Positions 4,890 through 63,963 are shown, counted from the first letter of the stretch. The stretch: 64,000 bases of DNA from a virus (IMGVR_UViG_3300031485_000046); one strand, 5' to 3'. Program-made: numbers and translations. Notes: generated by a model not told the origin, from the letters alone.

Positions 4890-5798
4890 CTAAATCCAAC
4901 CTAGCAATTCTTTCTTCAAGGCATCCGCGTCAGTTTGTGCCATATCACCGGGGTCACCTTGTATTTTTATAGAATAGGCATCCACGCCTCTAAGTATAAG
5001 TTCCGCAGTCAATTTTTCCGATTGTTTTATTGCCTGCGGATCATCATCGAATACCACAAATACTTTCTTGAACCTTTTGCTTATTTCCCTTACCTGATAT
5101 TTAGTGTATTTTATCCCAAAAGTAGCAATAGCACCGTACCCAAATCTCCATGCGTCTGTGACACCCTCCACACAAATGCAAGCATCATAATCCTTAATTG
5201 GTATCGCTTGGTAAAATACGTGCTTGTGTTTTACTATCTCTCGTTGTTCTGGACACGTTATATAGCGGAGGGAATGCTTGGCAGTAATATCCCTCGTCTG
5301 AAAAGACACAATACGATTTTCCCAATAGATGGGAATAACTAATCTGTGGGAGAATGATATTCCATCCATAAGACTGATAGGACCTGTGCCTTGTACATCC
5401 CATATCTTTTCGATTACCTCTGGATTAAACTTTCTTTTGGTAAGGTATCTTTTATGACGATCGTTCATTGGTGCAGTAGAAGGAGGCAGTCTGAATTTTT
5501 TCTGACCGACTCTTACTGTTACAGTAGATTTTACATGACTCTTACCTCCGTATTTCCTTGCTATTTCCTTTGCTTCTTTCTCTGATACGTGTATAAGTAG
5601 TGCTAGAGCTTTATGGGTCGCTTTCCAACCGCATCTCCAACAGACATAAAAATCATCCGCCATATTGTATCCTAAATGCATTCCTGGATTACCAATGCAA
5701 AAAGGGCAGGTCGTATTGACCCACCCTTCCCGACAATGTTTATGCCCTTCCGTAGCAAATGGTACGTTAAAATCCTTGTACAATTGGATTATATTCAC
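4890..5798 (-). CDS. DNA primase (zinc ribbon + TOPRIM)
   Basis: 302 aa; Cys4 zinc ribbon 'CPFC...CWRCG'; TOPRIM motifs 'EGVTDAW' and 'VVFDDDPQ', 'GDPGD'. Confidence 0.75.
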   Translation of the reverse strand: MNIIQLYKDFNVPFATEGHKHCREGWVNTTCPFCIGNPGMHLGYNMADDFYVCWRCGWKATHKALALLIHVSEKEAKEIARKYGGKSHVKSTVTVRVGQKKFRLPPSTAPMNDRHKRYLTKRKFNPEVIEKIWDVQGTGPISLMDGISFSHRLVIPIYWENRIVSFQTRDITAKHSLRYITCPEQREIVKHKHVFYQAIPIKDYDACICVEGVTDAWRFGYGAIATFGIKYTKYQVREISKRFKKVFVVFDDDPQAIKQSEKLTAELILRGVDAYSIKIQGDPGDMAQTDADALKKELLGWI

Positions 5799-6360
5799 GG
5801 CAATCCTCCTGCATTAGGGCTTTCAGTTCGTTTATCGTATCCCAAATTCTTTCGTGTGTCCAACCTTTCTCTCTGAGGATGTGGCGCAATTTCCCACGAA
5901 CTGCTCTACCGCTCATGCTACCATATTCTTCTTGTGCCTCTATAATCATATCATATACGATTTTGGCAGAAGGACTCATACGATCCATCTTTTCTTCCCA
6001 TTCTTCTTTAGCATCTACCGATTCAGGTGATGGTATAGTATATTCCATTTCTTCATCGAAAAAAGTACATGGAACCTTTTTCTGATGATACAGGTAATTG
6101 TTCAGTTTGGATTTTACGCACAAGGCAATCCAATTTATCAATGGTACGTTTTTATCCGCTTTGTATGTATTCAAGGCAACTGTATAGCCAACTGTAGCCT
6201 CAGAAAAAAGTTCCTCAAAATCTACTCCAGAGGTTTTATTGTACGACCAAGCTAATTTCCTTAGAAAGTTCTGGTACTTTTTATAGGTAGCGGTATCAGT
6301 CACAATATATTCCTCCTTTAGGATTTTCTGCTGTACTTGTGATGGTGTGGGCAGTAACAA
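5767..6360 (-). CDS. putative sigma-70-family-like transcription factor
   Basis: 197 aa; segment 'FLRKLAWSY..FEELFSEATVGYTVALNTYKADKNVPLINWIALCVKSKL' resembles sigma region 2; weak, motif-level only. Confidence 0.4.
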   Translation of the reverse strand: MLLPTPSQVQQKILKEEYIVTDTATYKKYQNFLRKLAWSYNKTSGVDFEELFSEATVGYTVALNTYKADKNVPLINWIALCVKSKLNNYLYHQKKVPCTFFDEEMEYTIPSPESVDAKEEWEEKMDRMSPSAKIVYDMIIEAQEEYGSMSGRAVRGKLRHILREKGWTHERIWDTINELKALMQEDCREYNPIVQGF

Positions 6361-6536
6361 CGCCTATCAGAACGTAACACCAACCAATCCGCTTTTTTAG
6401 CACGGAAGACGCATTCTTCAAACGTATCACCAACAAATATCGCCTTGCGTTTATACTTGTGGGAAGAGCAATATCTACAATCACATACCATTTCCATGTA
6501 GACTCTATCTCCCCACGTCACTCCCACAATAATCAT
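6318..6536 (-). CDS. small Cys/His-rich hypothetical protein
   Basis: 72 aa ORF between SNF2 helicase and sigma-like gene; CDC..C and CYCPHHH clusters; may be spurious. Confidence 0.3.
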   Translation of the reverse strand: MIIVGVTWGDRVYMEMVCDCRYCSSHKYKRKAIFVGDTFEECVFRAKKADWLVLRSDRRCYCPHHHKYSRKS

Positions 6537-6541
6537 AATAC

Positions 6542-8569
6542 CTACTCCGCATAGGAATTCAGCATCGCGGTAAGCATAGAGCCTTCAGGAACATCTTCCC
6601 CATCCAGTACCGCAGTAATCACCTTTCTCTTTTCATCTATCATTTCTGCCAACCTTTCTTCAATTGTGCCTCTGGGAAGAAGATACCAAATGTTGACAGC
6701 ATTTTTTTGTCCAATACGATTGCACCTGTCCTCCGCCTGATCTAGGAGCCCAGGTGTCCAAGGCAGTTCAAGGAAAGCTACGTTGTGGGAAGCGGTAAGT
6801 GTGATACCTACTCCAGCCGCCTTAATATTACCTACGAACAATCTTACGGAAGGGTCATTCTGAAATCTATCCACTATCTCTGCTCGTTTTTGGGCAGATA
6901 CAGACCCGTCTATTTTTACCGCAATCCCTGTATTGAATTCATCCATAATGGCTGATATGATTTCCTTGTGGACAGCAAACACTACAAGTTTATGGGAAGT
7001 ATCGTTCAGGAAATCTTTAATCCATTCAATCGCACCCTTTAATGCACCCTTAGCCGCCATAAACCTAAGAGCAGAAATCTGGGCAAGTGCTTCCGCATTA
7101 GAAGCCTTAGCCGCTGCCAACGCACCTTTATTTTCAGTAACCCAACCAATAAAATCTCTTTCTACCTTTCGATATTCCTTCTCATTAGACAAGGCTACAG
7201 GGATGACTGCTCTCTGCTTAGGTGGCAATTCTGTCAGGACTTCTTCTTTCCTTCTACGGATCATAACTCCCTGAAGTTTTTCGTACAATTCTTCGAGATT
7301 AGAAGCACCATTGTAATCCCAACCGAATCCATTGTGCTTGGCATCGCAGTACCGATTGGCAAAGTGCATGAAATTAGGAAAGAGATTAGGTTCTACCATG
7401 CGGATAGCATTGTATATCTCCTTAGGCCGATTGATTACGGGTGTTCCTGACATAGGAATAATATGAGGGATCCTTTTTGCCAATGCTTTCACGGCTTTGG
7501 TTCGGATAGTAGCATTGTTCATTATTGCCTGACATTCATCCAGTACCAGCACCTTAGGACTAAGGCTTGCAAGGTATTCTTGCCATCCTGCCACTATATC
7601 ATAATTAAGGATGATTATGTCAGGGTTATCAAGTTGGTATGCCTTTTTTCCTTCAAGTACAACTGCCTTTCTATCATCAGAAAGGCATCCTTTCACTTCT
7701 TTCAGCCAATTATATTTTACCACTGCTGGTGAAATGACAATAGTAGGCTTCAGTTCAGGATGGGCATGAATGTAGGCAAGGGCTTGAATAGTTTTGCCTA
7801 GTCCCATATCATCTCCAATTATTGCTTTACCATTCCGATGTTCCAAAAAAGCTACTCCCTGTGCTTGGAAAGGGTACAGCTTTTTCTTCAAACCTTCTAT
7901 ATTCGCTTCCTTCATATCATGGACAGATTTCTCTATCCTTGATATGATGTTCACCAGCCCTTCATCAATAGAGAAACCCCATTCTTTTACCTGTTTGATA
8001 GAGGCAGGCGAAGCAGAAGCAACCCAATACTTTTCGGTTTCCTTGCTGACAAATGACCTGTTAGGAAGCGATTTTACCTTCCCAAGCAGATCACCTGTAG
8101 GCTCGAAGGTTAGTTTCATCATATCGCCAGCGACTAATGTGGCGATACTTTTCTGAGGTTCCCGATTACCATCGTAGGATTTGTGAGTAGAAGGCACCTG
8201 AACAGTTCCCGCGTCCTCGTAGGCTATGAGAACAGATTTAGGGAACCAAGAATCAACAACCTTGCTTCTCGTAACACCTTTTGCCATCTCGATCTGTTCT
8301 GGCGTAAGGGATTCAAGAACAAGGTCACGCAAGCCCCAGTCCTTAAGACACTCAGGACCAATGCCAATGAGTTTAGAACCGGGATGGGTAAGTGCTCTTC
8401 CACATTTGGAACAACGAACTTCTGGATCAATCTCACCGTACCCGTATAGGTAAACTGCTCTTGCAGTTTCCCTAAGGATTGCGGCTTTGAAGTATATTGG
8501 TACACCTTTCTCTCTTGCTACTATGGGTCTGGTTCGATAGAACTTTGCAGGCAGCTCCATGAATGTCAT
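6542..8569 (-). CDS. SNF2-family DEAD-like helicase/ATPase with N-terminal zinc ribbon
   Basis: 675 aa; motif I 'DDMGLGKT', motif II 'VLVLDECQ', helicase C motif 'DQAEDRCNRIGQ'; N-terminal 'CSKCG...C' ribbon. Confidence 0.85.
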   Translation of the reverse strand: MTFMELPAKFYRTRPIVAREKGVPIYFKAAILRETARAVYLYGYGEIDPEVRCSKCGRALTHPGSKLIGIGPECLKDWGLRDLVLESLTPEQIEMAKGVTRSKVVDSWFPKSVLIAYEDAGTVQVPSTHKSYDGNREPQKSIATLVAGDMMKLTFEPTGDLLGKVKSLPNRSFVSKETEKYWVASASPASIKQVKEWGFSIDEGLVNIISRIEKSVHDMKEANIEGLKKKLYPFQAQGVAFLEHRNGKAIIGDDMGLGKTIQALAYIHAHPELKPTIVISPAVVKYNWLKEVKGCLSDDRKAVVLEGKKAYQLDNPDIIILNYDIVAGWQEYLASLSPKVLVLDECQAIMNNATIRTKAVKALAKRIPHIIPMSGTPVINRPKEIYNAIRMVEPNLFPNFMHFANRYCDAKHNGFGWDYNGASNLEELYEKLQGVMIRRRKEEVLTELPPKQRAVIPVALSNEKEYRKVERDFIGWVTENKGALAAAKASNAEALAQISALRFMAAKGALKGAIEWIKDFLNDTSHKLVVFAVHKEIISAIMDEFNTGIAVKIDGSVSAQKRAEIVDRFQNDPSVRLFVGNIKAAGVGITLTASHNVAFLELPWTPGLLDQAEDRCNRIGQKNAVNIWYLLPRGTIEERLAEMIDEKRKVITAVLDGEDVPEGSMLTAMLNSYAE

Positions 8570-50973: not shown

Positions 50974-51342
50974 TTATTTACCTTTGTTTTTCTGCAAAAG
51001 CTGAAAGAATACTTTTGCATCCATAATTACGATAGGATCTTTTCGACTTTTTTTCGCAAACAGCAACCATTCTGTTCCTGGAATGGTATTGGTTTGCGCT
51101 TGCTCTATCCAAGATGGGATAGACCAATTTTCCTGTGCTTTACACTCAACAGAGTATGGAAATTCTTTCAGCACTTTTGCTTCCATGCGAACATCTACGC
51201 CATTCTGCCCCATACCTCTAGATTCGATAGGGCAATCGTGGCCCCATTCATACCCAGTTAGATTCGATATTTGTTCACAAACCCATTTCTGTAGCCTGCG
51301 ACCTTTATCCTTAGCAGATGCAACAGATATCCGTTTTTTCAT
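50974..51342 (-). CDS. putative PD-(D/E)xK nuclease (possible Holliday junction resolvase)
   Basis: 122 aa; 'GVDVRM...VECKAQE' resembles D...ExK; located beside RecA-like gene. Confidence 0.4.
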   Translation of the reverse strand: MKKRISVASAKDKGRRLQKWVCEQISNLTGYEWGHDCPIESRGMGQNGVDVRMEAKVLKEFPYSVECKAQENWSIPSWIEQAQTNTIPGTEWLLFAKKSRKDPIVIMDAKVFFQLLQKNKGK

Positions 51343-52403
51343 ACCAATACCCTGCGTTTCCTATTGGAATCGAATTGTGATTCAACTTCTTCCCATAAAT
51401 CAATTACAGCATCTTCCAATTTCTTTTCAAGCCCGTCTTCTTCAATCATCCGAATAGATTCTTCTAATGATTTGCCTAGTTTCGTATCTCCAAGCGCATA
51501 AACAGTATTACCGCTCATCTTCTTCAGGTATTGCAGATTCTCTCGAATATTATCAATACCATAATCAAAGATTATAGTTAAAGGAGCAGAACGATACGGC
51601 TTCCATACAGAATTCTTGTATACTTCCACTTCTGTAGTTACGCCAATTACTCGTTCCACTTCCTTTTTGTTGATAGTTTTTACAACCTTTATCTTTTTAG
51701 GACTACTGAATTTCAGTCGAGTGGATGCATAAAATCCAATTGCAAATCCACCTGCGGCAGAAGTTTTTTCAGCATAAGGAGAAGAATCTCCTGAACTCCT
51801 TACCTGATTAGAACAGACCACAAGAAACTTCTTTTCCGTAATGACACGGCAGGTTTTTCGTAGCTGTTCCGAAAACTCCTTTGCCCTTCTCATTCCCATT
51901 TTGTCGCCTTCTTTTCCCTCTAATTCAAGGTTGGTAGAAAGAGCGGCTAGAGAATCCACAAATACTCCGTGCAAATTTCCTTCAGGTTCTGGTGCCCATT
52001 TACGAATAGGTTCAAACACTTCAGGTACAGTATCAGGGTGGTCTATCTCCATTTCCTCTACATCAAGATCGAACATCGTAGCAAATTGCCTATTCAACCT
52101 TGCTTCGGGATCACGAAAGAAAATAGAACCACCCTGCCTTTGTATTGCACCTGCTATCTGACATAACACAACTGTCTTACCACTGCCTGATGGGCCAAAT
52201 GCTTCTACGAGCACTCCACCCGGCAACCCACCACCTCTTACCCTTCCACCTGATATAGCAAGGTCAAGCAACGTAGAACCCGTAGATACTTTGTGCGTAA
52301 AATCACCATCATACTCCTTTTTCTTTGCAGGTGGTTCACTCATTCTTTGCTTTATCTGGGTAGTTAATTTACTTGGCGTCAGCTTTTTCTTTCTTACCAC
52401 CAT
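51339..52403 (-). CDS. RecA/UvsX-family recombinase
   Basis: 354 aa; 'VSTGSTLLDLAISGG..GGLPGGVLVEAFGPSGSGKT' matches RecA N-terminal/Walker A region. Confidence 0.75.
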   Translation of the reverse strand: MVVRKKKLTPSKLTTQIKQRMSEPPAKKKEYDGDFTHKVSTGSTLLDLAISGGRVRGGGLPGGVLVEAFGPSGSGKTVVLCQIAGAIQRQGGSIFFRDPEARLNRQFATMFDLDVEEMEIDHPDTVPEVFEPIRKWAPEPEGNLHGVFVDSLAALSTNLELEGKEGDKMGMRRAKEFSEQLRKTCRVITEKKFLVVCSNQVRSSGDSSPYAEKTSAAGGFAIGFYASTRLKFSSPKKIKVVKTINKKEVERVIGVTTEVEVYKNSVWKPYRSAPLTIIFDYGIDNIRENLQYLKKMSGNTVYALGDTKLGKSLEESIRMIEEDGLEKKLEDAVIDLWEEVESQFDSNRKRRVLV

Positions 52404-52781: not shown

Positions 52782-54056
52782 TTAATCCTCCTTAGCATCC
52801 ATACAATCGTCCCATTTCGCACAATCATCACATTCATCATATTCTTCACAATCTTTTCCGAATACATGACCGTGCGGACACTTGTTCTTTCCAGCTTTCT
52901 TATTTACCTTTTCTTCTTTCTTTCCCTTTTTAGCAGGTTCTTCTTTCAGTTTCTTTCTACCAGTACCATCACAGGGATTGCATACGCCCCCTCTAGAATT
53001 CTTACCAGTACCCTTGCAAGCCACACATTTTTCCTTTTCCGGAATATCTTCCTCTTCTTCCTCTTCTTCTACTTCATCATCATCTTCATCATCGTCCGTA
53101 TCCTCTTCATCCTCCTCTTCTTCATCTTCGTCATCCGTATCTTCATCCTCATCTTCGTCAGAGATGTCGTCCTCGTCCTCGTCATCCTCGTCAGAAGAAT
53201 CATCAGCATCGTCTTCATCCTCTTCGTCAGGATCAGCCTCTTTCTTTTTCTTGGATTTCATCATACTACGGACAGAAGTTCCATCTTCTTCTTCGTCATC
53301 CTCAGTTTCATACTCAAAGAATTTAGCTTCCAGCTCATTATACGTAAGCACCTGAAGAATCTCATCCAGATTAGGAACATCTTTCAGATCCTTTTCCTTA
53401 TATGGCTTTTCACGTTCTTCAAAATCAATTCTGGAGGTAGCGGCGTACTTATTCTTACCAAACTGTTCCTCGCTGAAACGAATCTTGAGAGTAAGCCCTT
53501 CATCAGGATCAGGGAATACAGCATTCGTATCATCTTCTTCAAGTTCCTCATTCAGCTTATCCTGAAAAAGATACTGCGAAATATCCCAAATATGAGGTTT
53601 CTTTTCGTGATCCTTTGAATTCAGAGGCACCACTACGTACAAGTTCCGAAGAGAAGGCTTGAGTGCCTTCAGTTCATCGTCTTCCGCATCTCCATCTTTC
53701 ACTCGCTTAGCTCGATGTTCGCAGATAGGACATTTCTTACCGAAAGTTGTGAGGCAGACAAAGGTTTCCTTATTTGCCCCTATTCCGCGATGTACTTTAT
53801 ACGGCTTCTTATACCACTGCTCTCCAACAGTAGCAATACCAAGATCCACATTCTTATCCATATGCTTTGGGTCTGTAACAGTATATGGAAGAATGTCGAG
53901 TGATACTCTAGAACCCGGCTCTTCTTTGAATACTCGAATATTTTTAGGCAGATTCAGATATCCGTATTTAGAACCTTGTGCTTTCTGCTGTTTCACATTA
54001 CCAGCAACTGCCGCCCTGAATTTGCTGTTACTGCCCTTTTTTCCAAGTTTAGCCAT
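52782..54056 (-). CDS. putative gp32-like ssDNA-binding protein with long poly-acidic tract and C-terminal DnaJ-type CxxCxGxG zinc finger
   Basis: 424 aa; His/Cys spacing 'VHRG..FVCLTTFGKKCPICE' resembles T4 gp32 zinc site; ~100-residue D/E tract; 'CVACKGTG','CNPCDGTG'. Confidence 0.45.
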   Translation of the reverse strand: MAKLGKKGSNSKFRAAVAGNVKQQKAQGSKYGYLNLPKNIRVFKEEPGSRVSLDILPYTVTDPKHMDKNVDLGIATVGEQWYKKPYKVHRGIGANKETFVCLTTFGKKCPICEHRAKRVKDGDAEDDELKALKPSLRNLYVVVPLNSKDHEKKPHIWDISQYLFQDKLNEELEEDDTNAVFPDPDEGLTLKIRFSEEQFGKNKYAATSRIDFEEREKPYKEKDLKDVPNLDEILQVLTYNELEAKFFEYETEDDEEEDGTSVRSMMKSKKKKEADPDEEDEDDADDSSDEDDEDEDDISDEDEDEDTDDEDEEEEDEEDTDDDEDDDEVEEEEEEEDIPEKEKCVACKGTGKNSRGGVCNPCDGTGRKKLKEEPAKKGKKEEKVNKKAGKNKCPHGHVFGKDCEEYDECDDCAKWDDCMDAKED

Positions 54057-54375: not shown

Positions 54376-54870
54376 CTATGATTTCCTCGCTTTCTTTTTC
54401 TTCACCATAGAAGCGGCAACGGTTTCATTCACTTTCTCATTTTTCCGCGTCCTCTCTTCTGAAAGATTTCTAGGAATAGACGGCCCTGCAAAATACTGCA
54501 TACCATGTAGCTTGATTAACCCATCAAGTGTATCTTTTCTGGAAGCGATCGCATCGAATGCTGATTTAGCCATACCGTACCTATACTGTGCTTCGATTAC
54601 TTCCTCCGCGGCTTTCTTGTAAGAATCTTGAAGGATGATTGTATCTGCTACAAGATTCTCGGTTATCTTGCCCAAACCAAATGCATCAGGATCTGCTCGT
54701 ATCTCTTTACTCAACTCAGCCTTAACAGCGTCAAACTGTTCCTTCATATAGTCAAGTTCCTTCCTAGCTTCACTTACTACATCTCCGTATTTCTTCATCA
54801 GGATCGGCTGTTCAAGCAATTCTACATCAAGGGCAGTTTCGTCAATGTTTACATCAAGATTGTACTCCAT
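54376..54870 (-). CDS. hypothetical protein
   Basis: 164 aa, coiled/acidic. Confidence 0.55.
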   Translation of the reverse strand: MEYNLDVNIDETALDVELLEQPILMKKYGDVVSEARKELDYMKEQFDAVKAELSKEIRADPDAFGLGKITENLVADTIILQDSYKKAAEEVIEAQYRYGMAKSAFDAIASRKDTLDGLIKLHGMQYFAGPSIPRNLSEERTRKNEKVNETVAASMVKKKKARKS

Positions 54871-54941: not shown

Positions 54942-55856
54942 TCAATTTTCTCCGCAAACAATAGAAAAACATGCAAACGTAAGTCCTGGAAATCCCGTAT
55001 TGTAGAACGGTTCTATGAACTGTTCCATAACTAGCCCTGCTTGCATGTTCTCTCCCTTAAGGAGAATCGTGTTGCAGTAGCTAAGAACCAGCCTGCGAAT
55101 TGACTCAGGATCTTGGTCTTTCAACTTAGTAAGAATTCCTGCCACTTTCTTCCAAGGTGCTTTTTGCATAAGAACACGGCATAATTCAATAGCATCTGAT
55201 TGTACCTCAGCCGCTCTCTTTGCAACTTCTATCCGCATTTCAGCGGGCACACCAAGCACCTGATCCAATATCTGCAACGCATTTCTTGGATGACCCTGAC
55301 TATCCATAATAATCTGTTCATACACTTCTTTAGTCAATTTATGTCCTTCTGTTTTTACAACAGAACGAAGCAAGGTCATCATTTCTGAATCTGTTAACTG
55401 TTTCACCTGATACTGTGAACATCTTCCTTTTATCGTAGCAATCAATTTCTGTGGATCTGTCGTAGCCAATATATAGTAAACATGTGGTGGTGTATCTTCC
55501 AACGCTTTTAGTAGTGCGGACTGGGCATCATTGGTTAGTCGATGAACTTCATCCAGTAACCACACTCTACATTTACCTGATAAAGGTTTATACTGCGATT
55601 GCCTGCGTATTTCCCTTACAGTTTCAATGCCTCGAAAATCAGCACTATCCACTTCCTTAAAATCATCTTCTGAACAACCAAGTTCCGTAGCGATGATTCT
55701 ACCAAGGGTAGTCTTACCACAACCGGTAGGGCCGTGCAGAAGATATGCATGAGGATGATCTTCTTTAGCCAGATCCGATTTGAGTGCCGCTACCACTTCT
55801 ACGTTGCCAACAACCTCGTCAAAAGTAGCTGGACGATATTTATGATAAAGGGACAT
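54942..55856 (-). CDS. clamp loader ATPase (DNA polymerase III gamma/tau / RFC-like)
   Basis: 304 aa; 'YRP..F.EVVGN', Walker A 'GPTGCGKTT', Walker B 'VWLLDEVH', sensor 'TT', 'GRC' box. Confidence 0.8.
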   Translation of the reverse strand: MSLYHKYRPATFDEVVGNVEVVAALKSDLAKEDHPHAYLLHGPTGCGKTTLGRIIATELGCSEDDFKEVDSADFRGIETVREIRRQSQYKPLSGKCRVWLLDEVHRLTNDAQSALLKALEDTPPHVYYILATTDPQKLIATIKGRCSQYQVKQLTDSEMMTLLRSVVKTEGHKLTKEVYEQIIMDSQGHPRNALQILDQVLGVPAEMRIEVAKRAAEVQSDAIELCRVLMQKAPWKKVAGILTKLKDQDPESIRRLVLSYCNTILLKGENMQAGLVMEQFIEPFYNTGFPGLTFACFSIVCGEN

Positions 55857-55861
55857 AGTAA

Positions 55862-56068
55862 TTACTCCCTAAACGGAATACACATTTGTCCTTTTGCAGG
55901 TGCACCAGATAGAGATACATTCGTACACATTCCGAGTACCTGTTTCATATCATCCACAGCACATTCCTCGATCATTCCCACAATTTCTCCATCACGAATT
56001 CTAACCAGAAGATAATTGAACCCAATCTCGCTGAACTTACTAGGATACGCCACTATTGTGAATTTCAT
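55862..56068 (-). CDS. hypothetical small protein
   Basis: 68 aa between polymerase and clamp loader. Confidence 0.45.
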   Translation of the reverse strand: MKFTIVAYPSKFSEIGFNYLLVRIRDGEIVGMIEECAVDDMKQVLGMCTNVSLSGAPAKGQMCIPFRE

Positions 56069-56250
56069 AATTTACCCTCCTTCTCAATGCATTCAGTACA
56101 CCTGACAGGTTTTCTGTTATGGCAGAACAACCTGATCCCATACATCAGACAACCGTAGCATGTGTCCATATAATCATACGTAGTTGTGTCAAGGTACTCA
56201 CATGATTCACAATACTTGTTCTTAGGCTTTGCTACTTTTATAATTGCCAA
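56065..56250 (-). CDS. small Cys-rich zinc-finger protein
   Basis: 61 aa; 'CESCEY...CYGC...C..C' Cys pattern. Confidence 0.45.
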   Translation of the reverse strand: MAIIKVAKPKNKYCESCEYLDTTTYDYMDTCYGCLMYGIRLFCHNRKPVRCTECIEKEGKL

Positions 56251-56262
56251 TCCTACCCCTCC

Positions 56263-58080
56263 TTATTTGAAATGGTAATCTCCCTTCTCATTCCAAGAAC
56301 AATCAACAGGACACACTTCTGCTTCTACTTCCAAGGGTACATTTATCCAGCTCCAGTGCTTAGGTAAATCTTCACAAGTAATCCTATGAACAGTAGACGC
56401 AACCATATCTAATTCGTCAGGATGCACATCCAACACCATTGCGTCATGTATCTGTCCGATCAATCTGGATTTCCAGTTCTGTTCTCTGGATATCTTGTCA
56501 ACCTGAATGAACGACCATAACAGACAATGAAATGCACTTCCCTGAATAGGAATATTTATGCATTCATTCCTACGCATGATACCAGAACATCTGAATCCTG
56601 TGTACATGCTCACATACCCGTTTTTTTGATACCCTTCCCACCACTTGTCTTTCCAACGATTATACACTTTGAATCGCCTATTCCAAAAATCATCTTCAAT
56701 TTTCTTGATATGGTCCGTAAACTTATCGAAGGAATCTAGCTTGTTTGCAATCAAGTGGTCGGAAATATGACCTCCGTCATGCTCAATGCCTTCACCTTTC
56801 TTCCATTTGCCTTTAGATAATCCGCACCATTTACAAGCAATATTTTCGGCGCAGTTTACATAATAGTCACCATAGAACTGCGGAAATACAAATCCGTTCT
56901 TTGCCGCTTGCCTCATCATTTTATGCGATGGTATACTCTTGTCTAACTTATCAAGTACAAATATCTGACAAGCCATATCACCGTGCATATCCGATGAAGG
57001 ATCTTCAATGTACTTTCTCATAACAGGGTCATGATGGTAACACTCGCTGATTCTTACTTCCACTCCTGAATAGTCTATTTCAAGTAGCTGGTGACCTGGC
57101 TTAGGAAATATCGCTTTGCGAGTAATCTCCATAGCCTCTTTATCTCGCTTGGGAATATTTTGGAAGTTTATCCGCTCCGATGAATTATGTACGCATATTT
57201 GGTTCACGATAAAATTATGATATTTTTCCACTTCAATATCGTACACATCTACCGGCTCATCAAGGTACTCTATTGTGTGGTCTGTATGATTAGACAATAC
57301 CTTATTAGAAAGACGTGTATCTGATAACGCCCTCGCTTGCACGTATGTTCCATCTATTAGACGGATTTTGTGCTCAGGTGTCACATCTAAGTATCCTTTC
57401 CCACCTCCACCGTTTATAGAGTAATGGATTCGCACAACTTTCTTATGTCCTGTTTTGCCAGCCCATATAACTTTTTGAATAGAAGGGCGGAGTTTATCGT
57501 CAAAACAATACACATAATCACCCTTCTTTACATTTTCAATAGGGGTCCCTTCTGGTTGTGCTTCAAAATCTTTCATTACCAATACTTTAGATCCTTTAGC
57601 TACACAAGAGCGAAATGTCTTTACTGTATGCAAATTAAAGAAAGGATGCAAGTATCCGCCTACTTGTTCTCTTATGAAAGCATCCAGATACGTATCTCGC
57701 ACCTTTTTCAATTTGCGCATTTCCAAAATCCACTTTATCTCAGGAATATCAATCTGGGAAAGTGCTTCATCGTCTGTTGCACCCTTGCCAGATGGTGTCA
57801 ACTTTGCAGGGGTGATTTTCCTAACATTGTACAAAAGGTGTGCTAACTGCCAATTAGAATCAGGGTTAGCCTTAGCACCATACACCTTCGTCCAATGCAT
57901 ATAGAATTTAGTATCCCTGAGTTTTCTATCCAATCGTGCTATTTTTTTGTCAAGGTACTCTTTTTTCTTTAAGCAGTAATCAACATCAATCCGCATTCCT
58001 TCTTGTTCTGCCCTCGCAAAAGCAAGGATGCCATCTTGCAATAGCTGATATGCTTCAGGAAGATTAGGTGTCAGTTGCAT
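56263..58080 (-). CDS. polA: family A DNA polymerase, polymerase-domain subunit (intein-containing)
   Basis: Motif A 'LLEIDYSGVEVR', motif B 'RQAAKNGFVFPQFYG', motif C 'QIHDAMVLD'; SD AAGGAGGG 8 nt before ATG 58080 (track start 58107). Confidence 0.85.
   Translation of the reverse strand: MQLTPNLPEAYQLLQDGILAFARAEQEGMRIDVDYCLKKKEYLDKKIARLDRKLRDTKFYMHWTKVYGAKANPDSNWQLAHLLYNVRKITPAKLTPSGKGATDDEALSQIDIPEIKWILEMRKLKKVRDTYLDAFIREQVGGYLHPFFNLHTVKTFRSCVAKGSKVLVMKDFEAQPEGTPIENVKKGDYVYCFDDKLRPSIQKVIWAGKTGHKKVVRIHYSINGGGGKGYLDVTPEHKIRLIDGTYVQARALSDTRLSNKVLSNHTDHTIEYLDEPVDVYDIEVEKYHNFIVNQICVHNSSERINFQNIPKRDKEAMEITRKAIFPKPGHQLLEIDYSGVEVRISECYHHDPVMRKYIEDPSSDMHGDMACQIFVLDKLDKSIPSHKMMRQAAKNGFVFPQFYGDYYVNCAENIACKWCGLSKGKWKKGEGIEHDGGHISDHLIANKLDSFDKFTDHIKKIEDDFWNRRFKVYNRWKDKWWEGYQKNGYVSMYTGFRCSGIMRRNECINIPIQGSAFHCLLWSFIQVDKISREQNWKSRLIGQIHDAMVLDVHPDELDMVASTVHRITCEDLPKHWSWINVPLEVEAEVCPVDCSWNEKGDYHFK
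57184..57606 (-). other. mini-intein (141 aa, Hint domain only) in the 'TxRxSS' motif of the polymerase
   Basis: Residues C168..N308 of track ORF: block A 'CVAKGSKVLV', block B 'TPEH', block F 'VYDIEVEKYHNFIVN', block G 'CVHN' followed by Ser; flanks join to 'TFRS|SSERINFQNIP' like Pol I 'TGRLSSTDPNLQNIP'. Confidence 0.8.
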
Positions 58081-59342
58081 CCTATGTACCCTCCTTGCTG
58101 AATCCATCGCATTTGTTTAGATGCTAACCGGTAAGTGAACAAACTATCCATACCACAGTATATCAATAGTTTATTCCAAATATCAGATCCTACAGGAACA
58201 TCAAGCAATTTGTTCATGGAATTGCTATCTTTATCATCCGCCCCTTTAAGATATGGAGCGACCTCATCATCATACCCTGCTACACCAAAATTGATATAGG
58301 TTTGTATCTTCAATCCTGTGATGTCTGGTCTGTTATCAAGAATGTGTGTAGCCAACATAGTATCCCATATCCAGTTTTTTACTTCATACCCCAGAATATT
58401 TTGTGTCCATGTGTGTTCAAACTTCAGATTTTGGGCAATCTTTCCTATCTTGTCTGATTGCAAAATTTCCTTAAGCAGTCTATTTCCTTTCTTACTTTTA
58501 GGCATCCCAAAAACTATTGCATCTTCAGGATTACTACACATGGACATGCAGATGATTTTGTGCTTGCTTGTATCATGCGGTTTAAGGCCCGTCGTTTCAT
58601 AATCAATAGCAATAGAAAACGGAAACTTTCTAGAAAGAAACTCTTCAAAAATTCCTACTAGCTCACTTTCTGATTTTACTATCTTGATAGCCGTCATTTC
58701 ATCTGGATATGTTTGCATAGACATGTCCACTGTATTTAATGCCCTGTCAAGGTCCTGTTTCCATACTGTTCGATATTCCTGTGCATCTTGTTTTTCTACA
58801 AACTCTGGATGAAATATCGGGCAGATCCACGTATTGTATTTCCTATCTGGAATAGTAAATCCTCTCCATTTATTCATTCCACCTAAATTCTTTGTCCAGA
58901 TAGAACCTATCACGGAGTTTAATGCTAGTTCACCTACAAGAATTATCACTTTAGGTTTATACTGCTCAATAGTAGATAGCACTCTTCGTCGGCAACATTG
59001 AACTTCTTTTGTCCACGGATTGGTGGTTTCCTTGGACCCTGAAGCATAGCAAGACAAAGCAAAGAGATTCAGACAGTCTTTGAACAAATCAACGCCTCTA
59101 CGTTCAAATTCTCGCCTAAGCGTTGTTCCAAATCTGTCTTGCCACGGTTTGCCTACTCGATCATCTCTACTGCTTGGCATATCACCAATGACCATTATTT
59201 TCTTTTCAAATTCCCCGAATGGTGCCATTCTAGGAGACGAAATATCTTTATACAACCCACAAGAAGCGCAAGAGAAAGCCTTATTACCACTAGGCCTAGT
59301 TTTAGATTTAGTTTCTTCTACTGAAAAGAATCCACTAGCCAT
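58071..59342 (-). CDS. DNA polymerase N-terminal subunit: UDG-like (family 4-type) domain + 3'-5' exonuclease domain
   Basis: 423 aa; 'CASCGL' and 'FHPEF' UDG-family-4-like elements with degenerate motif A ('GDMPS'); Exo I 'IAIDYETTGL', Exo II 'NLKFEH', Exo III 'YCGMDSLFTY'. Confidence 0.75.
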   Translation of the reverse strand: MASGFFSVEETKSKTRPSGNKAFSCASCGLYKDISSPRMAPFGEFEKKIMVIGDMPSSRDDRVGKPWQDRFGTTLRREFERRGVDLFKDCLNLFALSCYASGSKETTNPWTKEVQCCRRRVLSTIEQYKPKVIILVGELALNSVIGSIWTKNLGGMNKWRGFTIPDRKYNTWICPIFHPEFVEKQDAQEYRTVWKQDLDRALNTVDMSMQTYPDEMTAIKIVKSESELVGIFEEFLSRKFPFSIAIDYETTGLKPHDTSKHKIICMSMCSNPEDAIVFGMPKSKKGNRLLKEILQSDKIGKIAQNLKFEHTWTQNILGYEVKNWIWDTMLATHILDNRPDITGLKIQTYINFGVAGYDDEVAPYLKGADDKDSNSMNKLLDVPVGSDIWNKLLIYCGMDSLFTYRLASKQMRWIQQGGYIGCN

Positions 59343-59346
59343 CTTA

Positions 59347-60354
59347 CTAACCTTTCATTTCTAGAACGCCAACATACTCCCAATTATCTCCTATGAACTT
59401 GATAGCGTTTTCACCAAGAATGCATTTTTTAAGCATTTTACTTACATCCTTAAGAAGTTCAGGACGAATAGTAAATTTCTTTTCCTCACCTTTATATTTC
59501 AGATTCATCTCTTCTTCAAACCAGCCAACTTCAGACTGACCACGAATAATCATGCGTTTGGGCTTGATAGTTATTGTTACAGCATTACTTTCTGCTTCAC
59601 TGGAAAAGATAGACGCACGGTCTAACACCTCTTCAATAGCTCTAGGCAATTCAAAATCCGCACCCTGCACATCCATATATTTCGACACATCTGGAAATGT
59701 ATCTCCGAAGAAAGTTCGGCAAGAATACTCCGTACCTTTCTCAGTCTTGAAATGAATCCACCCGTGCCCTTCTGCAATATGTGTGGGTACACATCCATTC
59801 AATCTCTTTATAGTGCTTGCTGGCAAAAGAAACGTAGACACAGGCATCTTTTCAGTTAACTTGTACACCATTATTCTATAACTGTCAGACGCTTCAACGG
59901 AACCTTTTTCTGTCACATTTACACAAGTAATGATCGGACGGCTCATATCATTGGAACAAGCAAAGGAAACAAATTTAAGCGCCTTCATAAGACCTTCAGG
60001 TACTTTCTTCCATTTGCTTTTCTCACCAATCGCTTCTAGAGGCATCCGTATCTTTTCTTGAAGAGTAAGTCCTGCTTTAGCTTTACCTGCTTTCATGCGA
60101 ACCTCAGAACCATTTGCCTCTATTTCTACATCATTGGTTTTCATTTTGCACAGCACCTGATAAAACTCGTCAGCCTTGATAGCACCCTCAAGCCCATCTA
60201 ATCCTTCCACAGGATGGGACACACTTATTTCGTCATTGAATGTCATTACTTTCCCATCCTTAAAAGCAAAGCAGGTAGACTGTTCAATGTGCTCCTTAGA
60301 CGCAAGACCGGGCTTCACTATTTCAAGAGCTTCCAGAATATCTTCCCTATTCAT
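59347..60354 (-). CDS. DNA sliding clamp (DnaN/beta-like)
   Basis: 335 aa; 'SRPIITCVNVTEKGSVEASDSYRIMVYKL' resembles DnaN domain-2 'RYYLNGM..VATDGHRLAV'; adjacent to polymerase. Confidence 0.6.
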   Translation of the reverse strand: MNREDILEALEIVKPGLASKEHIEQSTCFAFKDGKVMTFNDEISVSHPVEGLDGLEGAIKADEFYQVLCKMKTNDVEIEANGSEVRMKAGKAKAGLTLQEKIRMPLEAIGEKSKWKKVPEGLMKALKFVSFACSNDMSRPIITCVNVTEKGSVEASDSYRIMVYKLTEKMPVSTFLLPASTIKRLNGCVPTHIAEGHGWIHFKTEKGTEYSCRTFFGDTFPDVSKYMDVQGADFELPRAIEEVLDRASIFSSEAESNAVTITIKPKRMIIRGQSEVGWFEEEMNLKYKGEEKKFTIRPELLKDVSKMLKKCILGENAIKFIGDNWEYVGVLEMKG

Positions 60355-60941
60355 ATTATATCCACCCCTTTTGCCCTATTTCGTTTTACCTGCCGATGTA
60401 TAAGAAATGCAAACTGTTTATACATGTTAATAAAATTATACCCAACATGCTTTAGTTTGCCTTTCTGTATTTCCCACGGAGTGCATATCCTATCTGCTTT
60501 CTCCCATCGCATGTCAAGTACATATTTATCAAAAGGAATAAAATCGTATCGTTCCGCCCAATAAGAAGACATAAGCCCATTATTCAGAACAAGTACACAA
60601 AAATGGATGTCGTATTTACTGCATTTATTATACAATTCCTCACAACTATGCATTGTCTTGGGCAGATGCAGTCTAGGGTAATTACGAAGCTGGGAGTAAG
60701 ACTGCCTTATCCAGAATTTTACTGGAATTGTTGTCTGTTCATTTTTTAGTCCTACATCCACAATTAAACCAATCCCTGAGAACATGTTTTGCGTCTTACC
60801 GGGTAATTCACACCGCAACGGACTCATAGGCATATTAACTAATTTTTCAACATACCTGAGAACCATGCCGTTGTACTTATTTATATCTTCCTGCGGATTT
60901 CTTCCCTTAGTGTCTGATTCTACCTTGAACATCGGTTCCAT
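60351..60941 (-). CDS. hypothetical protein (between clamp and DpdA-like gene)
   Basis: 196 aa; no QueD/QueE/FolE signature recognised. Confidence 0.55.
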   Translation of the reverse strand: MEPMFKVESDTKGRNPQEDINKYNGMVLRYVEKLVNMPMSPLRCELPGKTQNMFSGIGLIVDVGLKNEQTTIPVKFWIRQSYSQLRNYPRLHLPKTMHSCEELYNKCSKYDIHFCVLVLNNGLMSSYWAERYDFIPFDKYVLDMRWEKADRICTPWEIQKGKLKHVGYNFINMYKQFAFLIHRQVKRNRAKGVDII

Positions 60942-60956
60942 ATTATGTTTCCCTCC

Positions 60957-61928
60957 TTATATAGTGAATAATCCTTTGCTTACTTGGAATTGAACTCCTT
61001 TGCGATATTCATTCACCCATTGCTCTAATCCTAGAATGTATCGGATGTTAATTTCACAACGAACATCAAAGGATTGAATCTCATCATACGTGTACCCATC
61101 ATCTTCAATCTGTTTTAATTTCCGAGGTGTAAGTACACCCATTCCTTTACTAGACCGTTGCTTCGATACACAAAACACCATCGGTTGCTTTGAATAATCA
61201 GGATTCTTGAATCCACCGATAGGGTACATGATAGAACCCCACGCGGCAACTATTCTCCAAGTAGCGGCATCAGCACTAGTAAAAGGTAGCGTTTTCAGCA
61301 CGGGCAACATCCATACTGCAAATCCGTGTGTTTTAACACGGATTCTATTTATATGGATGTAAGAAAATACTGACCGCATCCAAGATAGCCTAGATTGGAC
61401 ACTCATATCGTTTGCAGGTGACACTCCGATATAGTCAGTAAGTTCTACCATTTTGTGCAACCATTCCCAATCTTCTCCTTGATGGAAGACATGAATAGGA
61501 GTGATCCCTGCATCTTTCATCCTAAGAAGATTTTCGTATCCTTTCGCGGCCGCTGTATTGATAATTTTCTTATTCTCCGCAGTCTTCACTCGATTGAGAT
61601 GTGTAGAAGTACCAGGAGAACCGGGGATCACATCGAGGTTGACTACCCTCAACTTTTTATTATCATCCGCCGCTATTTGGATTGCCTCTTTAGCATAACT
61701 AATGTAGGCGTCAATGGGAATAGAATGACCTTTAGCCCATGCTGAAAACGCACCTGAATCAAGAATGATGTTTCCATTTAATGTAGGAACTTGTCTGCAC
61801 CATTCTTTAAGCTGTTTTGGATAGAGATAAGAAACCAGTCTGTTCGTAATCCGCCTGTTGAGTTCCTTACCGCGTTCTTCCTTAGGATTAAAAACAGGAC
61901 CGGCAAAATACAAACGGACTGGCTTCAT
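60957..61928 (-). CDS. dpdA: DpdA-like tRNA-guanine-transglycosylase-family DNA 7-deazaguanine transglycosylase
   Basis: 323 aa; 'ILDSGAFSAW' resembles TGT 'DSGGFQ' catalytic motif; adjacent to queF and queC. Confidence 0.65.
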   Translation of the reverse strand: MKPVRLYFAGPVFNPKEERGKELNRRITNRLVSYLYPKQLKEWCRQVPTLNGNIILDSGAFSAWAKGHSIPIDAYISYAKEAIQIAADDNKKLRVVNLDVIPGSPGTSTHLNRVKTAENKKIINTAAAKGYENLLRMKDAGITPIHVFHQGEDWEWLHKMVELTDYIGVSPANDMSVQSRLSWMRSVFSYIHINRIRVKTHGFAVWMLPVLKTLPFTSADAATWRIVAAWGSIMYPIGGFKNPDYSKQPMVFCVSKQRSSKGMGVLTPRKLKQIEDDGYTYDEIQSFDVRCEINIRYILGLEQWVNEYRKGVQFQVSKGLFTI

Positions 61929-61930
61929 TT

Positions 61931-62374
61931 TCAGTTACCTGTTCCGTCGTACTCGGCAATCACCGAAATATCAGTACCACCTCTGCGATTGAAATTAGCC
62001 TCTATTCGCATGTGGTACGGTTTGCAAGCGTTCGACAGATCGTCCAGTATTTTGTTTGTAACAGACTCCATAAACGCTCCGTGCTGACGATATGCTCCCA
62101 TGTATATCTTGAGTGCTTTCGTTTCCAAACAAAAATCCTTTGGAAAGTATCGAATCGTGATAGTGCCAAAATCAGGATTTCCTGTACGCGGACACAGACT
62201 GGAAAATTCCGTGAATACGAACTCCGTGGCGTATTGCCTGTCTTTGCACGGATTATCAAATACTTCAAGAAGAGCTGGATCTGGATTATTGTACCTGTCG
62301 TACGGTACGACTGTTCCGAGGTTTTTCAGATGGTCTACATTCACTTTTCTATCCATTGTTTGCACCCTCCTCAT
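61931..62374 (-). CDS. queF: NADPH-dependent 7-cyano-7-deazaguanine reductase (unimodular QueF)
   Basis: ~145 aa; catalytic-Cys region 'FSSLCPRTGNPDFGTITIRY' and QueF motif-like 'ETKALKIY'. Confidence 0.8.
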   Translation of the reverse strand: MRRVQTMDRKVNVDHLKNLGTVVPYDRYNNPDPALLEVFDNPCKDRQYATEFVFTEFSSLCPRTGNPDFGTITIRYFPKDFCLETKALKIYMGAYRQHGAFMESVTNKILDDLSNACKPYHMRIEANFNRRGGTDISVIAEYDGTGN

Positions 62375-63044
62375 AGAATACTGGGTCGATCAGATTGTTT
62401 TCTGCAAAGGCCTCAAGGCGTTCATAACAACTTCCACATTTTCCGCAAGGATTCGGTTGGTTCTTGTAACAAGTTCTTGTAAGGTGATATGGTGCGTTAT
62501 TTGCAATACCATACTGCACTATCTGACTTTTAGACATGTGAAGGAACGGTGCAAGTATATTCACATTTCTATCCGTACCAAGATAAATCGCTGTATCCAT
62601 TGCTTTATGAAATTCTGGGCGACAATCAGGGTAAATAGCATGATCGCCTCTATGAATTCCTATAGCAATATTCTCTATACCTTTTGACCACGCCATACCG
62701 GCTAGGATCGACAGGAACACTAGATTACGAGCAGGTACCACCGTCTGACTCATATTCGATGATTCATAGTGTCCTTCCGGTATTTCTCCACCGCTTAGAA
62801 GCAGACTAGATTCCATTCCAGTAAATGCTCCGGACAGGTCTACAACTTCGTAGGTCAATTCGCAAGGAACGGCAGACACATAATATTTCAATACTGCGTC
62901 TGCCGCTCTTCGTTCGTACACATTGTGTTTGCTACCGTACTGGAAATTTACACAATGGATTTTCTTGAATTCCTTGCGAATAAGCCAAGCAAGAACTGTT
63001 GCAGAATCCAGTCCTCCTGAGAAAGAAAGGACTGCGGAACGCAT
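62349..63044 (-). CDS. queC: 7-cyano-7-deazaguanine synthase
   Basis: Start at ATG 63044 (track ORF 62349..63188 carries an implausible Arg/Lys-rich extension); PP-loop 'SFSGGLDS'; zinc site 'CYKNQPNPCGKCGSC'. Confidence 0.85.
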   Translation of the reverse strand: MRSAVLSFSGGLDSATVLAWLIRKEFKKIHCVNFQYGSKHNVYERRAADAVLKYYVSAVPCELTYEVVDLSGAFTGMESSLLLSGGEIPEGHYESSNMSQTVVPARNLVFLSILAGMAWSKGIENIAIGIHRGDHAIYPDCRPEFHKAMDTAIYLGTDRNVNILAPFLHMSKSQIVQYGIANNAPYHLTRTCYKNQPNPCGKCGSCYERLEAFAENNLIDPVFYEEGANNG

Positions 63045-63045
63045 C

Positions 63046-63963
63046 TTACTTCTTCTTTCCAGCCTTCTTGCCAGCTTTCGCTTCCTTAGCCGGAGCGGTC
63101 TTTGCAGGCGCTTCCTTCTTTGCAGAAGCTTTCTTTTCCGCCATTTCTGCCTTCGCCTCCTTCTTTTTAGAAGATTTACTACCACCATCGTGCTTCACGA
63201 TTTCCTTAGTGATCTTACTGCCTTTCTCACACTTGATATCCGTGAACTTCACGATGTTGCCATCTTCCTTGTCAATGTAGATAAGCACAGGGAAGCGGCA
63301 ATATTTAGGATTAGTCCCATCAGAAAGAATTGTAGAAAGAGCGGCGATGGTTGCGTCGGGGAACTGCTTTGCCGCAAGTTCGATCAGATCCTTTTTGCTG
63401 TACCGACCCTCATTGATAAGGTCGATAAAAAATTCGATCCTTTTGGCAGTCTTATTGCCACCAAATATCTCATCCTTCGTTTTCGTGGGCTTATCAGATT
63501 TTGCAGGCTTTTCTGCCTTCGGAGCCTTAGCAGGCTTTTCTTCCTTGGCTTTACTCTTGCCCTTCTTAGGAATAGGAAGTACCTCTATTTCGTCTTCCTC
63601 TTCTTCCTCTACATCGTCACCGTCTTCGACATCTTCGTCCTCATCGCTTTCGTCCCCATCTTCCCCTTCCTCGTTGACCCCTTCATCGTCTTCGTCTTCA
63701 TCGTCAGCTTCTTCGTCCCCTTCGACTTCTTCCTCATCCGCATCCTCCTCGTCGGCATCCTCTTCCTCTTCATCAGCATACTTAGCCTGAATCTGTGCAA
63801 GAATATCCATCGTTTCCTCGGAAAGTCCATCCTCTTCGCTTACAGCTTCAGAAGCCTCAAGCAGTTCAGCTTCCAGTTCGTCAGTACCGAGCTTTACATC
63901 AATGGGAGGCTCGATAATAGTATTAATCTCCTTAGCCGCCTTAACCAGTTCACTTTTCTTCAT
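63046..63963 (-). CDS. hypothetical protein with ~70-residue poly-acidic tract and Lys/Ala-rich histone-H1-like C-terminus
   Basis: 305 aa; D/E run about 63560..63780; C-terminal 'KKEAKAEMAEKKASAKKEAPAKTAPAKEAKAGKKAGKKK'. Confidence 0.6.
   Translation of the reverse strand: MKKSELVKAAKEINTIIEPPIDVKLGTDELEAELLEASEAVSEEDGLSEETMDILAQIQAKYADEEEEDADEEDADEEEVEGDEEADDEDEDDEGVNEEGEDGDESDEDEDVEDGDDVEEEEEDEIEVLPIPKKGKSKAKEEKPAKAPKAEKPAKSDKPTKTKDEIFGGNKTAKRIEFFIDLINEGRYSKKDLIELAAKQFPDATIAALSTILSDGTNPKYCRFPVLIYIDKEDGNIVKFTDIKCEKGSKITKEIVKHDGGSKSSKKKEAKAEMAEKKASAKKEAPAKTAPAKEAKAGKKAGKKK

Follow-up and report, generated by a model that had tools for sequence, protein, structure and literature searches.

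The 64,000-nucleotide (nt) stretch of viral DNA IMGVR_UViG_3300031485_000046, which we refer to as the window, carries a family A DNA polymerase that is encoded on the minus strand (56263..59342) by two overlapping genes. The first gene specifies a uracil-DNA glycosylase (UDG)-like domain followed by a 3'-5' exonuclease, and the second specifies the polymerase domain, which is interrupted by an intein. Taken as a whole, the data are best explained by two genes giving rise to two polypeptides that would assemble into a non-covalent family A replicative polymerase, a reading that we consider likely. The elements of the locus are the following.

58071..59342, minus strand: gene for the UDG-like/3'-5' exonuclease subunit (exo gene), 423 amino acids (aa), ATG 59340..59342, TGA 58071..58073, identified from the open reading frame (ORF) and Pfam
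56263..58080, minus strand: gene for the polymerase subunit precursor (pol gene), 605 aa from ATG 58080, 464 aa without the intein, stop 56263..56265
58071..58080, minus strand: 10-nt overlap ATGCAACTGA, with the pol start codon (58078..58080) and the exo stop codon (58071..58073)
58089..58096, minus strand: Shine-Dalgarno (SD) sequence AAGGAGGG of the pol gene, inside the last codons (QQGG) of the exo gene
58770..59222, minus strand: family-4 UDG-like domain, aa 41-191 of the exo protein (Pfam UDG, E 1.9e-13)
58116..58685, minus strand: DnaQ-like 3'-5' exonuclease domain, aa 220-409 of the exo protein (Pfam DNA_pol_A_exo1, E 1.9e-12, 47.8 bits, cut-off 23.6)
57184..57606, minus strand: mini-intein of 141 aa, pol aa 159-299 counted from ATG 58080 (Pfam Intein_splicing, 36.4 bits, cut-off 35.8)

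An initial annotation, made from the sequence alone, had described an upstream ORF with a UDG-like domain and motifs Exo I-III that stops at TGA 58071..58073, and a polymerase ORF that opens in another frame at ATG 58080 with an SD sequence inside the last upstream codons. We find each of these elements in place. The description of the junction holds in its details; what it missed are the mini-intein in the pol gene and the fused relatives that exist within the same family. At the junction, the exo frame reads CAG CAA GGA GGG TAC ATA GGA TGC AAC TGA and the -1 frame, which is the frame of the pol ORF relative to the exo ORF, reads ATG CAA CTG ACA; the pol ATG lies 7 nt ahead of the exo TGA, and a spacer of 8 nt separates AAGGAGGG from ATG 58078..58080. 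The pol frame is open only from 58116, where TAA 58117..58119 closes it upstream, and its earliest in-frame ATG is at 58107 (ORF 56263..58107, 614 aa), with no SD there. Because the polymerases of homologues at 51-98% identity start where 58080 lies in the window, the closer ones with MQ(L/I)TPNLPEAY, we take ATG 58080 rather than 58107 to be the true polymerase start. A start codon within a few nt of the upstream stop, together with an SD sequence inside the upstream ORF, is the arrangement of coupled overlapping cistrons, and this junction geometry suggests that translation of pol is coupled to that of exo. The spacing between the SD and the start codon is optimal. Overlaps of the ATGA or TGATG type are seen in other relatives, and an AGGAG or GGAGG SD accompanies 30 of the 59 long ORFs in the window.

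Both halves have large numbers of homologues. Counted as metagenomic clusters at 90% identity, there are 906 for the exo half (E ≤ 1e-5) and 3584 for the pol half (E ≤ 1e-10), which places both ORFs far beyond chance. Among the best 120 of the 906 exo homologues (97-44% identity), nearly all are stand-alone proteins of 400-430 aa, the outliers being three truncated fragments (273-401 aa) and one 738-aa protein with an intein. The best 120 of the 3584 pol homologues are likewise stand-alone, at about 455-495 aa, apart from three with an intein (605-617 aa) and one 289-aa fragment. Stand-alone halves are conserved across hundreds of metagenomic relatives, in agreement with the earlier proposal of two separate polypeptides rather than a fused PolA.

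The junction itself is reproduced as well. Two independent assemblies that are 98% identical (L006 and L008) carry the same sequence at the SD, ATG, and stop, and the window junction is also found in P0001, which has 101 member sequences. In three more distant contigs (L007, L001, and L009, 89-76% identity), CAAGGAGG, the spacing, and the 10-nt overlap are kept while the adjoining bases vary; in all, five independent contigs (L001, L006-L009) at 76-98% identity share the 10-nt overlap together with AAGGAGG. A broader survey of 83 related loci yielded 69 distinct junctions, comprising 2 fusions, 20 overlaps of 1-25 nt (ten of them 4-nt, ATGA-type, and five 10-nt), 23 gaps of 0-60 nt, and 24 longer gaps (12 of 150-400 nt, 12 of more than 400 nt). 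The pol ORF is in the -1 frame relative to exo at 34 junctions, in the +1 frame at 21, and in the same frame at 12. In 83 of 85 loci, exo precedes pol on the same strand, and in most loci the two genes adjoin or overlap.

Other genes stand between the two in some relatives. In L076 (1648..2439), a free-standing GIY-YIG/NUMOD3 homing endonuclease sits exactly between exo and pol, and insertions of homing endonucleases are a possible route to gene fission or gene separation. Elsewhere, the intervening genes encode a radical-SAM enzyme (L045), an SNF2-like helicase (L055), or unknown proteins, and in L016 (5212..7772) a FEN-like 5'-3' exonuclease and an IS110-like ORF come after exo, while more than 4 kb separates exo from pol. 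What looks like a second split of the pol gene in L003 (6290..6330) was rejected, as it is an N-run scaffold gap, and the small ORFs into which the L002 pol gene (5266..6662) is broken are most likely assembly indels.

The first polypeptide has the Exo I DxE, Exo II Asp, and Exo III YxxxD signatures of a PolA-type (DnaQ-like) exonuclease. D247 and E249 of Exo I are kept in 151 of 151 aligned homologues, D327 of Exo II in 128 of 151, and Y395 and D399 of Exo III in 144 of 144 aligned; because these residues are essentially universal in the family, proofreading by the exo subunit is to be expected. A Foldseek match to the Klenow exonuclease domain (1d8y, 1kfs) is obtained for this domain. The UDG-like domain gives PDB sequence matches to family-4 UDG and UdgX (E ~2e-10) and Foldseek matches at a template modelling (TM) score of ~0.7 to 1l9g, 1vk2, and 6ail. 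Family-4 UDGs bind a [4Fe-4S] cluster via four Cys residues. Four Cys residues in or just before the UDG-like domain (C25, C28, C98, and C117) are conserved in 142-150 of 151 homologues, and the domain probably binds an iron-sulfur (Fe-S) cluster. A glycosylase function is doubtful, since motif A is GDMPS where GEAPG is expected, placing Asp at the catalytic Glu position, and since only 68 of 151 homologues (45%) retain both Glu and the His of motif B. Glu in GE(A/G)PG (motif A) and His in HPS (motif B) are the active residues that set SPO1-like and SP15-like enzymes apart from N4-like ones. In the window protein the His is retained (motif B is FHPE), and in its closest relatives Ser or Asp replaces it. 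The incomplete retention of the catalytic pair points to a conserved role that is structural or sensing rather than enzymatic; a role of this kind has likewise been proposed for N4-like UDG-PolAs (PMC10201439).

The AlphaFold2 model of the exo subunit is compact (predicted local distance difference test 85, predicted TM score 0.83), with a long helix at 387-415 and a disordered tail at 419-423. Across the UDG and exo domains, the best match in both fold and sequence is the phiLo UDG-PolA (9qhs), on which global Foldseek superposition is poor (root-mean-square deviation (rmsd) 17 Å, TMq 0.32), which limits what the match says about the relative orientation of the UDG and exo domains. At its N-terminus, the protein carries a G-F-F sequence (aa 4-6; 59325..59333, minus strand) in which F5 is present in 107 of 151 and F6 in 116 of 151 homologues, split and fused alike. 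This tail has low confidence in the model and is probably disordered; G-F-F is, speculatively, a candidate clamp-binding peptide.

The second subunit is a polymerase-only protein (thumb, palm, and fingers) that matches Pfam DNA_pol_A (E 6.6e-38, 131 bits, cut-off 34.3) and has the family A motifs DYSGVEVRI (A), RQAAKNGFVFPQFYG (B), and QIHDA (C). D195 of motif A, R249, K253, Y262, and G263 of motif B, and H404 and D405 of motif C are invariant in 18 homologues. Extein residue 20 aligns with residue 213 of the Klenow-fragment chain, which sets pol residue 1 at ~517 of Pol I, the position of the exo/pol domain boundary in the Klenow structure. By this alignment, the cut between the genes falls at the exo/pol domain boundary of canonical Pol I. 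Both halves match consecutive stretches of a single profile for polymerases, phrog_17, at positions 479-830 and 976-1237.

The pol gene is interrupted in one of its most recognizable motifs: the intein lies between TFRS and SSERINFQNIP, which matches the Klenow motif TGRLSSxxPNLQNIP. It has the features of a class-1 intein, namely Cys1, TPEH in block B, a terminal VHN, and Ser+1, all of which are conserved in five homologous inteins; the PT-HINT match is weak, and no endonuclease domain is found in its 141 aa. As these splicing residues are intact, excision of the intein is to be expected, and an active polymerase would then require both protein splicing and subunit assembly. The intein is precisely absent from alleles that are 98-99% identical (L006, L008, and P0269). 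Its removal restores a contiguous polymerase of 464 aa that is colinear with these alleles and with the Klenow motif. Between the window extein and L006 there are 30 nucleotide differences, 11 of which fall within -13 to +9 of the insertion point. All 11 are synonymous, including AGT-to-TCN serine codon switches, and one version of the flanks is common to the intein-containing alleles while the other is common to the intein-free alleles. Since the synonymous differences cluster at the flanks and follow the presence of the intein, they suggest acquisition by homing with co-conversion of the flanks. In Cys1, block B TxxH, terminal HN, and Ser+1, as in its insertion into a conserved motif, its presence/absence polymorphism, and its co-conversion-like flanks, the element resembles the class-1 mini-inteins of other replication proteins. 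The literature search returned nothing specific on an intein at this PolA site, intein databases lying outside its coverage.

Larger inteins occupy the same pol site in some fused relatives, and two further intein sites occur in UDG-exo homologues, after about aa 103-108 and about aa 305 (the intein-bearing homologues are P0127, P0182, P0167, P0174, P0179, P0202, and P0052, and P0158, P0160, P0176, and P0230). Given these additional sites and the larger inteins at the same pol site, the UDG-exo/pol family is an intein hotspot. One polymerase with an intein, at 89% identity (P0273), is recorded at NCBI as 'MAG: DNA polymerase [Candidatus Paceibacterota bacterium]', where MAG stands for metagenome-assembled genome; it is either a phage contig binned in a candidate phyla radiation (CPR) MAG or a hint of the host.

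Comparison with related polymerases, as fused or split forms, had been suggested by the initial annotation. Of the 150 best representatives after clustering at 50% identity, 111 are exo-only, 33 (22%) are fused, and 6 are exo-only with inteins. The fused UDG-exo-pol relatives are ~840-940 aa long, or longer with inteins, and appear only at 45% identity or less to the window protein. In two of them (L014 and L063), 5-8 residues separate the last exo helix (LA.KQM) from the first pol helix, and the split forms have short extra tails. Fused forms are dispersed over a crude neighbor-joining tree built from the exo module, requiring 22 parsimony changes against a mean of 28.9 (minimum 22) with shuffled labels; label clustering is weak and the tree too rough for events to be counted, so we treat it only as an indication of repeated change between the fused and split states. 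A single-base indel at a 4- or 10-nt overlap would fuse or separate the frames, which would make such repeated change easy. Judged from these sequences, the split is the commoner state in this polymerase family, and the boundary is evolutionarily labile.

Further genes of note lie around the locus.

59347..60354, minus strand: beta-clamp-like processivity factor, directly upstream of the exo gene (PHROG 947, E 3.8e-37; weak Pfam DNA_pol3_beta_3)
54942..55856, minus strand: clamp-loader AAA+ gene, downstream (Pfam DNA_pol3_delta2, E 1.1e-24; PHROG 5846, E 1.1e-69)
60957..63188, minus strand: 7-deazaguanine DNA-modification module, upstream of the replication genes (QueC 62349..63188, QueF 61931..62374)
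60957..61928, minus strand: DpdA/TGT-like protein, the third member of this module (PHROG 887, no Pfam match)
52782..54056, minus strand: 424-aa protein containing CxxC pairs and a very long stretch rich in Asp/Glu (no Pfam match)

The clamp-like gene is syntenic in four relatives (L001, L003, L004, and L016), and the flanking of the split polymerase by clamp and clamp-loader genes is likewise shared with relatives. The modification module suggests that the phage DNA carries a preQ1-type modification. The 424-aa protein adjoins a RecA/UvsX-like gene (51339..52403) and a weak UvsY-like ORF (54376..54870), and it may be similar to a single-stranded DNA-binding protein.

From these observations, we propose how the enzyme would be made and put together. 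The exo gene would yield a rigid module consisting of the UDG-like, probably Fe-S-binding, domain and an active-looking proofreading exonuclease. The pol cistron, with its own strong SD, would be translated by direct initiation or by re-initiation after exo termination, giving roughly equimolar subunits. The pol precursor would excise its 141-aa class-1 mini-intein from the conserved DNA-binding motif to become active. The mature subunits would then bind each other non-covalently across the exo-pol interface of canonical enzymes, the UDG-like domain providing a second contact, and the UDG-exo-pol architecture rebuilt in this way would cooperate with the beta-like clamp and clamp loader that the phage itself encodes. 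Fused UDG-PolAs have this geometry, and it has also been predicted for split T7-like PolAs. Whether RNA structure contributes to coupling can be judged from the junction: a 120-nt fold is no better than shuffles (z -0.56), and the SD is predicted to pair locally with AAUCUUCCU in a hairpin of the window and of L006 (probability paired 0.87; median 0.45 for 31 control genes). We rejected this hairpin as a conserved coupling device because it is not conserved in L001 and L009, and with the fold statistic this leaves structure-mediated coupling unsupported.

Several observations weigh against the proposed two-subunit polymerase. The SD-masking hairpin is missing in L001 and L009 (probability paired 0.25); the UDG catalytic pair is altered in the window and incomplete in most homologues, as described above; motif C is HDA, not HDE, family-wide; and in some relatives the genes are kilobases apart, so that coupling is no requirement of the family. 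The last of these also bears on an alternative in which no stable complex forms, the pol subunit replicating alone (with the clamp) while the UDG-exo protein acts in trans as a repair or editing nuclease or as a sensor of uracil or modified bases. Tight co-expression is evidently not needed in the many relatives where exo and pol are 150 nt to over 4 kb apart and unrelated genes intervene, the exo model is a self-contained two-domain fold, and the poor global superposition on the fused phiLo enzyme fits such independence too. Nevertheless, nearly all loci share the strand and exo-first order, mostly with adjacent or overlapping genes. Moreover, 22% of representatives are direct fusions with a link of 5-8 residues, which implies that the modules work side by side. 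In addition, a structural need for the exo domain has been reported for PolAs, and the split T7-like enzymes are predicted to preserve the complex (PMC10201439). On balance, we regard independent action of the two proteins as improbable.

The initial annotation had also offered a programmed frameshift and an indel as alternatives to separate polypeptides. A -1 frameshift or stop-codon bypass in the overlap would join UDG, exo, and pol in one protein, made either by itself or in addition to the two separate ones. Internal SD sequences stimulate frameshifting in dnaX and prfB, and here the pol frame is -1 relative to exo with an internal SD-like AAGGAGGG in the overlap; the -1 relation is also the commonest among relatives (34 of 67). 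Such a shift is, however, possible only within the 16 codons from TAA 58117..58119 to TGA 58071..58073, which contain no in-phase X_XXY_YYZ heptamer, and the RNA 3' of this interval has no significant structure. Relatives with +1 or same-frame junctions, gaps, or intervening genes are at odds with it, as are the conserved pol start codon and, in closer relatives, the conserved N-terminus. Lacking a slippery heptamer, a stimulatory structure, and conservation, a programmed frameshift is in our estimation very improbable. A sequencing or assembly indel, or a recent pseudogenizing mutation in a normally fused gene, is an error of a kind that metagenome assemblies do contain, as seen in the fragmented L002 pol gene and the N-run in L003. 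Against this stand the identical junction in the independent assemblies L006 and L008 and in P0001, the same architecture at 76-89% identity (L001, L007, and L009), the essentially exclusive stand-alone state of the best 120 homologues of each half, and the intact catalytic residues of both halves, which together leave this explanation with a negligible likelihood. Neither an assembly indel nor a conserved programmed frameshift is compatible with the variation of overlaps, gaps, frames, and intervening genes among relatives.

The two-subunit polymerase can be compared with several known systems. Fission between exo and pol genes was described, for the first time in PolAs, in S-SBP1-like T7-like cyanophages (Czernecki et al. 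2023, NAR, PMC10201439), where a frameshift was dismissed and a preserved exo-pol complex was predicted. As there, exo and pol are separate adjacent genes cut at the domain boundary. The S-SBP1-like enzymes, however, belong to T7-like cluster 5 and have no UDG domain, whereas the exo subunit here carries a UDG-like/Fe-S domain; their split is a recent one in a small subset of otherwise fused enzymes, whereas here most representatives of a very large uncultured clade have it (111 of 150), with junctions that vary and genes that are sometimes kilobases apart. Judged by its nearest isolates and its UDG domain, the window enzyme appears to lie outside the T7-like PolA cluster, the thioredoxin-binding-domain lineage. 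Its domain order, family-4 UDG, 3'-5' exo, and pol, is that of the UDG-PolAs (N4-like cluster 17, SPO1-like, and SP15-like YerA41/phiLo), all described members of which are single chains (Czernecki et al. 2023, PMC10201439; Missoury et al. 2025). The UDG-like domain is N-terminal to exo in both, and the UDG catalytic residues are partly replaced in the N4-like enzymes, as here; the chain in the window ends at the stop codon 58071..58073. Identity between the UDG-PolAs and the window is low (16-26%), the window enzyme lacks the inserts and C-terminal domain found in SP15-like ones, and the window encodes 7-deazaguanine genes rather than thymidine hypermodification genes. By sequence, then, the split appears to work like the S-SBP1 case in another lineage, with the domain content of a UDG-PolA and not its single chain.

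Separate polymerase and proofreading polypeptides are familiar from E. coli Pol III, in which a complex of alpha and epsilon has been demonstrated. Together with archaeal PolD (DP1/DP2) and phiKZ-like PolB, in which exo is a separate ORF (Kazlauskas & Venclovas 2011, PMC3201878), Pol III resembles the present system in combining a separate polymerase and exonuclease with a clamp and clamp loader; these enzymes belong to unrelated families (C, D, and B), and for the window such a complex is a prediction. Other split phage polymerases in the literature include those of cyanophage MAGs and, cut inside the pol domain, those of MEP401-type phages. Our literature search found no description of a split UDG-PolA, and megablast of 55000..61000 against 50,697 phage records gave no match. 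The nearest isolates are distant: SPO1-like, Clostridium CP3-like, and Edwardsiella ZHS polymerases for the exo half (23-26% identity) and, as the nearest isolate polymerases, those of Vibrio SSP002-like siphophages, Proteus phage Stubb, and SPO1-like phages (~26%), not T7-like ones.

A more far-reaching proposal is that this clade has a replicase of several subunits in the style of Pol III, with family A as its core and with an exchangeable or separately regulated proofreading subunit that bears an Fe-S UDG-like sensor, a beta-like clamp, and a clamp loader. In this proposal, G-F-F would be a clamp tether as in epsilon, and fusion and fission would be an adaptive switch rather than neutral drift. 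We offer it tentatively and think it unlikely.

The intein is a polymorphic mobile element in a conserved PolA motif; current concepts are left unchanged by it and by the split alike. The gene arrangement has a practical consequence, in that annotation pipelines give the first gene the label 'uracil-DNA glycosylase', and phages of this kind would be scored as having no proofreading. The 2023 report of gene fission in PolAs concerned only a small group of T7-like cyanophages; in the very large metagenomic family described here, most members are split, and this family is of the UDG-PolA type, so far described as fusions only. The natural pairs of fused and split enzymes can be used to study communication among the exo, UDG, and pol modules. 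Given that some relatives keep exo and pol far apart, a PolA can evidently operate with its proofreading module as a true subunit.

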